From: a virus
Taxonomy: Duplodnaviria > Heunggongvirae > Uroviricota > Caudoviricetes
Reading direction: 5' to 3' (one strand)
Length of the DNA: 15,605 nucleotides
IMG/VR virus record: IMGVR_UViG_2671180577_000016
Shown piece by piece: positions 152 through 653 of the stretch (its first letter is position 1; each line of letters opens with the position of its first letter). The notes under the pieces were generated by a model that searched no databases, was not told the DNA's origin, and saw only the letters and a program-made list of their open reading frames with translations. The translations under genes were made by a program, and so were the position numbers.

Positions 152-383
152 TACCGCGTTAACGGAGCGCGGCGTTGTCCCCTCATGGTCGCTGGTCCGG
201 TGCGATGGTGGAAGAAGCCGGATGTTTATCACTATTAATTGATAACACAGAAATGGATTCATTGATTTTCAGCACGTTTTTGTATTCGTATTATTGAACA
301 TCTGTTTATTTTACTTTTAACATATTGATAATAAAAAGAGCTGTAAATCTTTAGATGAGTCGATTTTGTCCGGGGAAGTTCAA

Positions 384-524
384 ATGGATTTTATGCTGAC
401 GGTTTCTGGTGTGGTTATCCTGTCCATTGCTTATACTGCAGATAAATATGGCTGCCATTTGTTATCACGTATTGGCGCTTATTGCTCGTTGATGCTGATT
501 TTCTCGTCGCTTTTTTTTGAGTAA
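384..524 (+). CDS. Hypothetical small hydrophobic peptide (46 aa), possible membrane peptide
   Basis: ATG at 384 preceded by GGGGAAG; my translation is MDFMLTVSGVVILSIAYTADKYGCHLLSRIGAYCSLMLIFSSLFFE with TAA at 522-524. It sits in an AT-rich island between the IS end and the YlcI-like gene. I recognise no homolog. Confidence 0.25.
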   Translation: MDFMLTVSGVVILSIAYTADKYGCHLLSRIGAYCSLMLIFSSLFFE

Positions 525-653
525 GTTATATTAATTATAACAAATAATTTTCTGTGTTTTTTCAGGCTATCCCGTCAGACGGGAAGCCTGTACTGCCGGG
601 GGACGAATGGAAAACTGATGTGTCCGGTAACTGTGTGTTCTGTGAACACCATG

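Follow-up and report, generated by a model that had tools for sequence, protein, structure and literature searches.

A moron cassette encoding a predicted two-helix membrane micro-protein at the lysis/packaging boundary of lambdoid E. coli prophages

HK97 gp15 and the λ genes bor and lom are examples of lambdoid morons, and HK97 gp15 is a small inner-membrane protein made in lysogens. The moron concept is that of Juhala et al. 2000, as it is cited in PMC4104026. Here we analyze an AT-rich island in a 15,605-nt stretch of DNA (the window; IMG/VR record IMGVR_UViG_2671180577_000016), the late region of a lambdoid E. coli prophage of a kind common in Shiga-toxin-producing strains. The island extends from 222 to about 628 and contains, on the + strand at 384–524, a 46-residue open reading frame (ORF), which is ECs1538 of prophage Sp6 in E. 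coli O157:H7 Sakai. The island is an autonomous accessory cassette, i.e., a moron, at the boundary between the lysis genes and the packaging genes (ynfO-HNH-cos-terS-terL). Like the lambdoid morons, it is an extra cassette between conserved genes, absent from close relatives and deviant in base composition, with a single small gene, an apparent promoter of its own, and expression from the prophage in the lysogen. ECs1538 further resembles HK97 gp15 in being small, made in lysogens and, by prediction, located in the inner membrane. It differs from the lambdoid morons as follows: its product has no sequence or fold relation to any described moron product, its cassette has no clean terminator, and its 46 residues are predicted to form two short helices.

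The moron reading is based on insertion relative to related phages, the alternation of cassettes at the same site, deviant composition, and expression in the lysogen above that of the flanking late genes. The initial annotation had proposed a possible moron in an AT-rich island at 230–653, and the moron proposal is borne out by an empty site in phage vB_EcoS-569R3, alternative cassettes, the GC shift, and expression in uninduced cultures (PMC5597208 S2 Table). The AT-richness is confirmed. GC content is 31.3% at 222–560 and 36.6% at 230–653, versus 56.3% for the whole window, 57.2% for 881–15605, and 66% for 152–221; that is, the segment from 222 to ~628 has 31–37% GC against 57% for the remainder. 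The AT skew of the island, −0.12 to −0.35, marks its + strand as T-rich. The bounds first given for the island need correction, since the left edge is at ~222 and the right edge at ~628–700. Alignments and GC content together define the cassette as 222–628, comprising the promoter region, the ORF, and a downstream hairpin region. Its right edge is approximate, lying at ~628 by comparison with a lineage lacking ynfO and at ~690 by comparison with the empty site.

The left flank of the slot is a GC-rich (66%) junction segment, 152–221, which the prophages share irrespective of the slot's contents; 569R3, JLK-2012, Sp10, and Sp6 all have it. The junction segment diverges by 1.6% from that of SHP24, the carrier of the divergent copy, as against ~20% for the cassette. 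In 569R3 the flanks corresponding to 152–~214 and ~690–900 are contiguous, and the left flank meets the 3′ end of ynfO. A TonB-family gene fills the slot in JLK-2012 and many Stx1a phages, and another AT-rich cassette fills it in Sakai prophages Sp9, Sp10, and Sp12. The slot was surveyed in 120 listed IMG/VR loci anchored on the left flank. Among these, the ORF cassette is found in at least 25 and a TonB-like gene in at least 35; at least 11 are empty, at least 6 carry the small RNA (sRNA) HnrS, at least 39 have other contents, and at least 4 are too short. Among the loci listed, the other contents are mostly a flank leading straight into a λ-type cosQ/cosN. In prophages with a λ-type terminase (L094, L095, L192, and others), the junction segment passes directly into cosQ/cosN (GGGCGGCGACCT...). 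The junction segment therefore marks the right-hand limit of the lysis-side module and is a boundary at which different packaging modules are joined by recombination.

We identify the cassette of Sp9, Sp10, and Sp12 as the gene for HnrS (EcOnc10-12), an sRNA recently shown to counteract Hha/H-NS silencing (PMC13502914). The Hfq peak coordinates in PMC4104026 Table S2 fit this placement after a shift of 128–141 nt between versions of the Sakai record; the 141-nt shift was measured on ECs1538 itself. In the slot, HnrS has the minus-strand seed CUUCUACC, complementary to the hha ribosome-binding site, and an 8-bp GC-rich hairpin followed by U7, matching the description in PMC13502914. In Sp10 it lies at ~2645–2712 of locus L086 on the minus strand (the ynfO strand), and its terminator abuts the conserved left flank. 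The HnrS cassette and the present one are alike in that both sit between the junction segment and ynfO, are AT-rich, are expressed in the lysogen, and are enriched in the same kind of prophages. HnrS differs in being a 66-nt non-coding RNA encoded on the other strand, and its intrinsic terminator lies against the left flank; the gene of the present cassette is coding and on the + strand, and the cassette has no HnrS seed, no such terminator, and no sequence similarity. An HnrS-like sRNA in the present cassette was accordingly rejected, as neither the seed, nor a minus-strand terminator, nor similarity was found. That HnrS shares the slot makes the lysis/packaging junction a hot spot for cargo expressed in lysogens. 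Two further slot variants, L097 and L187, also have minus-strand terminators at the edge of the left flank and may encode more sRNAs.

The cassette moves independently of its neighbouring genes. Between haplotypes, ynfO diverges far more than the cassette does, with many third-codon differences beside a near-identical cassette. The cassette is found beside both HK97-type and λ-type terminases, and the divergent SHP24 copy is beside a λ-type terminase. Synteny with ylcI/ynfO homologs, which the initial annotation proposed to look for, is thus real but not obligatory: in one lineage, P0007, the cassette is present without any ynfO.

Intact prophages have the genes in the order holin, endolysin, and Rz/Rz1; a 225-bp ORF; the 46-aa ORF; ynfO/ylcI on the opposite strand; and then the HNH endonuclease, terS, terL, and a capsid protease fusion. 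The cassette lies ~500 bp downstream of Rz/Rz1. Homology of the window to intact prophages starts at 152, and from that position identity to O103:H2 12009, O145:H28, and further genomes is 100%.

ECs1538 (WP_000347013.1; EDL933 copy at 1648712–1648852) was already called a hypothetical protein by the Prokaryotic Genome Annotation Pipeline and by the original Sakai annotation. Its cassette is present in 734 of 5,426 complete E. coli genomes (~13%), where nearly all copies are ≥95% identical and one is at 80.6%. The ORF is intact in every variant examined from fetched loci. A run of eight Ts at 510–517 encodes the C-terminal FF, and variation in the length of this run alters the C-terminus in some database entries. 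Outside E. coli, no relatives were found: a word-indexed search of 5.8 billion proteins returned 13 clusters, all from E. coli; a HMMER profile run against 1.84 billion representatives returned only fragments and tandem-repeat artefacts (P0014, P0015, P0019, and P0020); and 185,579 GTDB species-representative genomes contained none. The INPHARED phage collection has two records with the ORF. The peptide has no match in Pfam, PHROGs, NCBIfam, or PADLOC, a sequence profile against the PDB gave only chance matches, and a fold search of BFVD was empty. At the DNA level, Rfam has no match at the gathering threshold across the whole window and only chance-level matches (E >3) in 1–1600. In the papers searched, the main text mentions neither ECs1538 nor its accession numbers or sequence. 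ECs1538 is thus a young ORFan.

Is the ORF a gene? Taken alone, it is not beyond chance, and its reality therefore rests on conservation and published expression data. ORFs as hydrophobic as this one (grand average of hydropathy (GRAVY) ≥1.1) arise in 3.7% of dinucleotide shuffles of 222–660. Comparison with SHP24, where the ORF has 45 residues and is 80.6% identical, gives 25 substitutions in 135 nt with the frame open. These comprise 9 synonymous changes and 13 mostly conservative replacements (V/I, S/A, F/L, and M/I), yielding dN 0.14, dS 0.5, and dN/dS 0.28–0.33; among the three frames, synonymous changes are most numerous in the annotated one. The C-terminal half, LLSRIGAYC[SA]L[MI]LIFSSLFF, is almost invariant. 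In a simulation of random substitution, an open frame together with an equally small hydropathy change had P = 0.03. Within the main clade the ORF has four synonymous changes, one non-synonymous change, and one change of the start from ATG to GTG, and in the P0007 lineage the frame is kept at 46 residues. To summarize, the comparative coding evidence agrees with a gene, but it is modest and the selection signal is weak.

The expression data are RNA-seq and ribosome profiling (Ribo-seq) of uninduced Sakai cultures (Hücker 2017; PMC5597208 S2 Table), where ECs1538 figures as a control gene in the translatome table. In lysogeny broth (LB) at 37 °C, ECs1538 has an RNA level of 57.6 reads per kilobase for every million mapped reads (RPKM), a Ribo-seq value of 26.1, a ribosomal coverage value (RCV) of 0.46, and a coverage of 0.98, and it meets the translation thresholds of that study. 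The corresponding values are 32.7, 7.3, 0.23, and 0.81 in brain heart infusion (BHI) at 37 °C, and 2.1, 0.6, 0.29, and 0.13 in BHI at 14 °C with 4% NaCl. For the two late genes listed just upstream, the values in LB are 10.1, 6.7, 0.68, and 0.35 (ECs1536) and 3.0, 2.1, 0.95, and 0.18 (ECs1537); for the holin gene, ECs1530, they are 8.4, 8.4, 1.03, and 0.49; and for ynfO, ECs1539, they are 45.6, 11.1, 0.25, and 0.65 (PMC5597208). ECs1538 RNA in LB is thus 5–20 times that of the two upstream late genes and, in the lysogen, ~7 times that of the holin gene. ECs1538 transcription thus probably begins downstream of ECs1537, and in the lysogen ribosomes occupy the full length of the gene. The finding is ordinary in kind, in that the gene was already annotated and already present in a published translatome table.

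That start is probably a σ70-type promoter belonging to the cassette itself, within an invariant upstream block at 294–345 (+ strand) that was delimited by promoter scanning and conservation. No position in 294–369 varies among 78 close loci, and a 35-nt core, 303–337, is identical in the 80% variant SHP24. There are two candidate promoters in the block: TTGAAC (294–299) and TAACAT (318–323) separated by 18 nt, and TTTATT (305–310) and GATAAT (327–332) separated by 16 nt. The predicted transcription start at ~330–339 would give a 5′ untranslated region of ~45–55 nt. The published BPROM analysis assigned ECs1538 a promoter with an uncommonly high linear discriminant function score of 8.0, against a mean of 3.4, tabulated as lying 248 bp upstream of the start (PMC5597208). 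As tabulated, this position would land in GC-rich DNA; we suspect that 248 is instead a coordinate within a 300-nt input, in which case it corresponds to the GATAAT at 327–332. Another candidate, P1 (266–294), was rejected despite the top + strand score and a match in the consensus scan, because its −10 is TGTTAT in the commonest haplotype. The best promoter-like match of the island is on the minus strand at 347–319 (TTTACA/17/TATGTT), inside the invariant block; it points left into the junction segment, and no terminator or ORF follows it.

The ORF and the Shine-Dalgarno (SD)-like GGGGAAG reported in the initial annotation are both confirmed, the latter at 371–377 (+ strand), 6 nt 5′ of the ATG. 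Every lineage retains the SD, as GAGGAAG in Sakai and GGGGAAC in SHP24, and is listed with a dG of −3.6 in PMC5597208 S4 Table. Downstream of the ORF, a GC-rich hairpin, CAGGCUAUCCCGUCAGACGGGAAGCCUG, is found at 563–592, between the convergent ORF and ynfO (fold z = −3.8/−3.9). This hairpin has no U-tract after it on either strand and is partly conserved in P0007 and not in SHP24. A second hairpin with a U-rich tail, UUAAUUAUGUAAUU, lies at 625–657 on the + strand, overlapping the ynfO stop codon (z ~ −3.8). Downstream of the ORF, no other + strand site looks like a terminator, and this one is weak; it is absent from the P0007 lineage, so that neither downstream hairpin is conserved across lineages. 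TransTermHP lists no terminator for ECs1538 (PMC5597208 S4 Table). A 35-aa ORF at 554–661 was rejected, as it has neither an SD nor a family match.

The encoded protein, MDFMLTVSGVVILSIAYTADKYGCHLLSRIGAYCSLMLIFSSLFFE, has a GRAVY of 1.11, and the SHP24 variant has 1.54. AlphaFold2, given a three-sequence alignment, predicts helixes at residues 2–22 and 24–44 with a break at G23 (mean predicted local distance difference test score 72). PredictProtein/TMSEG predicts two transmembrane helixes and an inner-membrane localization (PMC5597208 S9 Table). The earlier suggestion of a small membrane protein thus stands as a prediction, by hydropathy and by both programs, whereas the single transmembrane segment that went with it does not, as AlphaFold and TMSEG both predict two helixes. 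Basic residues occur only in the loop D20-K-Y-G-C-H25 and at R29, and acidic residues are at the two ends, D2 and E46. By the positive-inside rule, this distribution suggests that the loop (D20–R29) is cytoplasmic and that both acidic termini are periplasmic. Helix 2 has a conserved G31xxx[S/A]35, with S35 here and A in SHP24; G31xxxS35 is a helix-packing motif.

We propose that the cassette is a moron expressed in lysogeny and that its product, a small hairpin protein of the inner membrane, probably modulates another membrane protein; we give this proposal a probability of roughly two in three. The steps would be as follows. Separately from the late operon, a promoter in 294–345 would drive a short mRNA in the lysogen. 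The SD at 371–377 would direct translation of the 46-residue protein, which would insert into the inner membrane as a helical hairpin. By analogy with other small proteins, the hairpin would then bind and modulate a larger membrane protein, to the benefit of the lysogen or the prophage. The best single guess for the outcome, based on the prophage origin and the expression pattern, would be superinfection exclusion, through a block of DNA entry by the incoming phages. The analogy is with AcrZ, MgtS, MgrB, and DicB of the Qin prophage, which are of a similar size class and act in the way presumed here for ECs1538, by binding a larger membrane protein. DicB is a small protein of a cryptic prophage that is able to block phage entry through inner-membrane receptor proteins (PMC6832061). 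These proteins differ from ECs1538 in that there is no homology and in that most have one helix, and DicB none.

A bolder version of the proposal is that ECs1538 is the founder of a new and recent family of lysogeny-expressed two-helix membrane micro-proteins that confer a selectable trait on EHEC-type lambdoid prophages, which we regard as doubtful. Were it true, the trait might be to exclude competing lambdoid phages by blocking an entry factor in the inner membrane, or to modulate a transporter or sensor of the host, and the fast spread of a near-invariant cassette across many backbones and serotypes would be a sign that carriage is positively selected. A large share of the accessory genome of Shiga-toxin-producing E. 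coli is prophage DNA, and the morons of these prophages include genes for virulence and phage defence. The present cassette is found in about one in seven complete E. coli genomes and is expressed in the lysogen. If phage exclusion or the tuning of a membrane complex proves true, ECs1538 would be a very small, easily testable prophage–host factor; if there is no phenotype, it would be one more young ORFan moron.

Several results weigh against a lysogeny-expressed membrane protein. An ATG-initiated ORF of at least 46 residues occurs in 45% of the dinucleotide shuffles of 222–660; in the random-substitution simulation, the non-synonymous count alone has P = 0.19; and the P0007 lineage has five non-synonymous changes versus one synonymous change, for a dN/dS of ~1.1. 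The evidence for the protein is moderate ribosome occupancy, with an RCV of 0.46 against a mean of 1.55 for short annotated genes in the same study (PMC5597208). Each hydrophobic stretch is ~16 residues long, which is short for a membrane span, and a convincing rho-independent terminator was not found downstream of the ORF. Finally, ECs1538 belongs to an ORFan family limited to E. coli prophages and of very little diversity, and therefore no function can be transferred by homology. The ORF length expected by chance, the dN/dS of ~1.1 in one lineage, and the youth and narrowness of the family are also points in favour of an ORF without protein function, i.e., AT-rich filler or regulatory DNA, such as a promoter or terminator, an H-NS-bound spacer, or an RNA element. 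The footprints would then be a product of pervasive translation at a low level, and the hydrophobic reading an accident of the T-rich transcript. Consistent with this, the hydrophobicity does come partly from the T-rich strand (see the AT skew above), the non-coding DNA upstream diverges about as much as the ORF (22% versus 18.5%), and T-run length changes the C-terminus in some database entries. We nevertheless consider a non-functional ORF unlikely, for, at a DNA identity of 80% and a dN/dS of ~0.3, the frame, start, SD, and pattern of hydrophobicity have been preserved, conservation of open frame plus hydropathy reaches P = 0.03 under random substitution, and only 3.7% of shuffles are as hydrophobic. 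In addition, footprint coverage is near-complete, no Rfam family matches, and ~13% of complete E. coli genomes have come to carry the cassette, whose ORF is unbroken in all variants examined.

Two other explanations keep a functional peptide and give it a different role. The suggestion of the initial annotation that the peptide might be a type I toxin can be made concrete, since a perfect extended −10, TGTTATAAT, lies on the minus strand at 539–531, directly 3′ of the ORF stop codon; an antisense RNA from this candidate promoter would run over the 3′ end of the ORF and repress a membrane-damaging peptide. Type I systems that overlap at their 3′ ends occur in Gram-positive prophages, and the 539–531 site resembles that arrangement. 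The peptide also shares with the E. coli type I toxins (Hok/Gef, TisB, Ldr, Ibs, ShoB, DinQ, and ZorO) its small size (46 residues), hydrophobicity (GRAVY 1.11), carriage on a mobile element, here a prophage, and a possible antisense promoter. However, the antisense −10 is not conserved, being deleted in the P0007 lineage and altered by mutation in SHP24, both of which keep the ORF. In ordinary LB growth, 98% of the ORF has footprint coverage, which is unexpected for a repressed toxin; the 5′ region and mRNA have no stable fold (z = +0.41), i.e., there is no structured leader; and the peptide has two hydrophobic segments, predicted to be two helixes, without a charged tail. Pfam and NCBIfam should include the known type I toxin families, and neither gives a match even at E up to 1. 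In Sakai, no Hfq peak is listed at the ECs1538 locus, and the tables of the RNase E interactome, obtained by cross-linking, ligation, and sequencing of hybrids, have no entry for ECs1537–ECs1539. Translation in normal growth, the unstructured mRNA, and the unconserved antisense promoter together make a type I toxin improbable. A role as a lysis-timing accessory, that is, a holin, antiholin, or spanin-like modulator of the adjacent lysis cassette, is suggested by the position ~500 bp downstream of Rz/Rz1 in intact prophages and by the two predicted hydrophobic helixes, as class II holins have two hydrophobic helixes. Against it, the slot is optional, the cassette being missing from many otherwise identical lysis cassettes; expression in the uninduced lysogen is well above that of the holin gene (57.6 versus 8.4 RPKM); the C-terminus, SSLFFE, does not have the charged tail typical of holins; no PHROG or Pfam holin family matches; and in the window IS600 divides the cassette from the lysis genes. 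We consider such a role very improbable indeed.

The IS600 in question, an insertion sequence (IS) of the IS3 family, occupies 1–151 of the window with its left end, outside the cassette, on the minus strand, and its match is annotated ‘IS3-like element IS600 family transposase’. The start of orfA is at 93 and reads leftward, and the terminal inverted repeat ends at 151. The insertion is 70 bp left of the island, within the conserved junction segment, and through it the cassette and packaging genes of the window have lost their connection to the lysis genes and the late promoter. In O121 genomes, an IS600 is also near the same cassette, with its junction ~50 bp away, and a second IS600 copy disrupts ynfO.

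To the right of the cassette, ynfO/ylcI (DUF3950) lies at 654–839 on the minus strand (Pfam PF13132, 8.7e-20; NCBIfam YlcI_YnfO_N; phrog_949). It is convergent with the ORF and divergent from the HNH-terminase operon. YnfO/YlcI shows a ribbon-helix-helix DNA-binding pattern, i.e., an IRNIRFP strand followed by two helixes, and a weak HicB-like PHROG match. Expression of ynfO in uninduced Sakai, at the level given above for ECs1539, suggests that it regulates the packaging operon. At 1336–1464, in the interval from the HNH gene to terS, copies of (A/C)ATGTTAAC / GTTAACAT are clustered in both direct and inverted orientation, and the cluster includes a perfect 22-bp palindrome, GCCAGTTAACA|TGTTAACTGGC. 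This cluster is probably the cos or terminase-binding region of an HK97-like packaging module. Lastly, the start region of ynfO (GAAAATGTCATCGAAAAACC), at ~826–870 (+ strand) here and at 3016–3060 of L086, is similar to that of hha (GAAGTATGTCCGAAAAACC). Because of this resemblance, pairing with the hha translation start is predicted (−29 kcal/mol) for the leader of the HNH operon on the + strand. The pairing may be coincidental; it is noted here since HnrS, the sRNA found in the slot in other prophages, also targets the hha ribosome-binding site.

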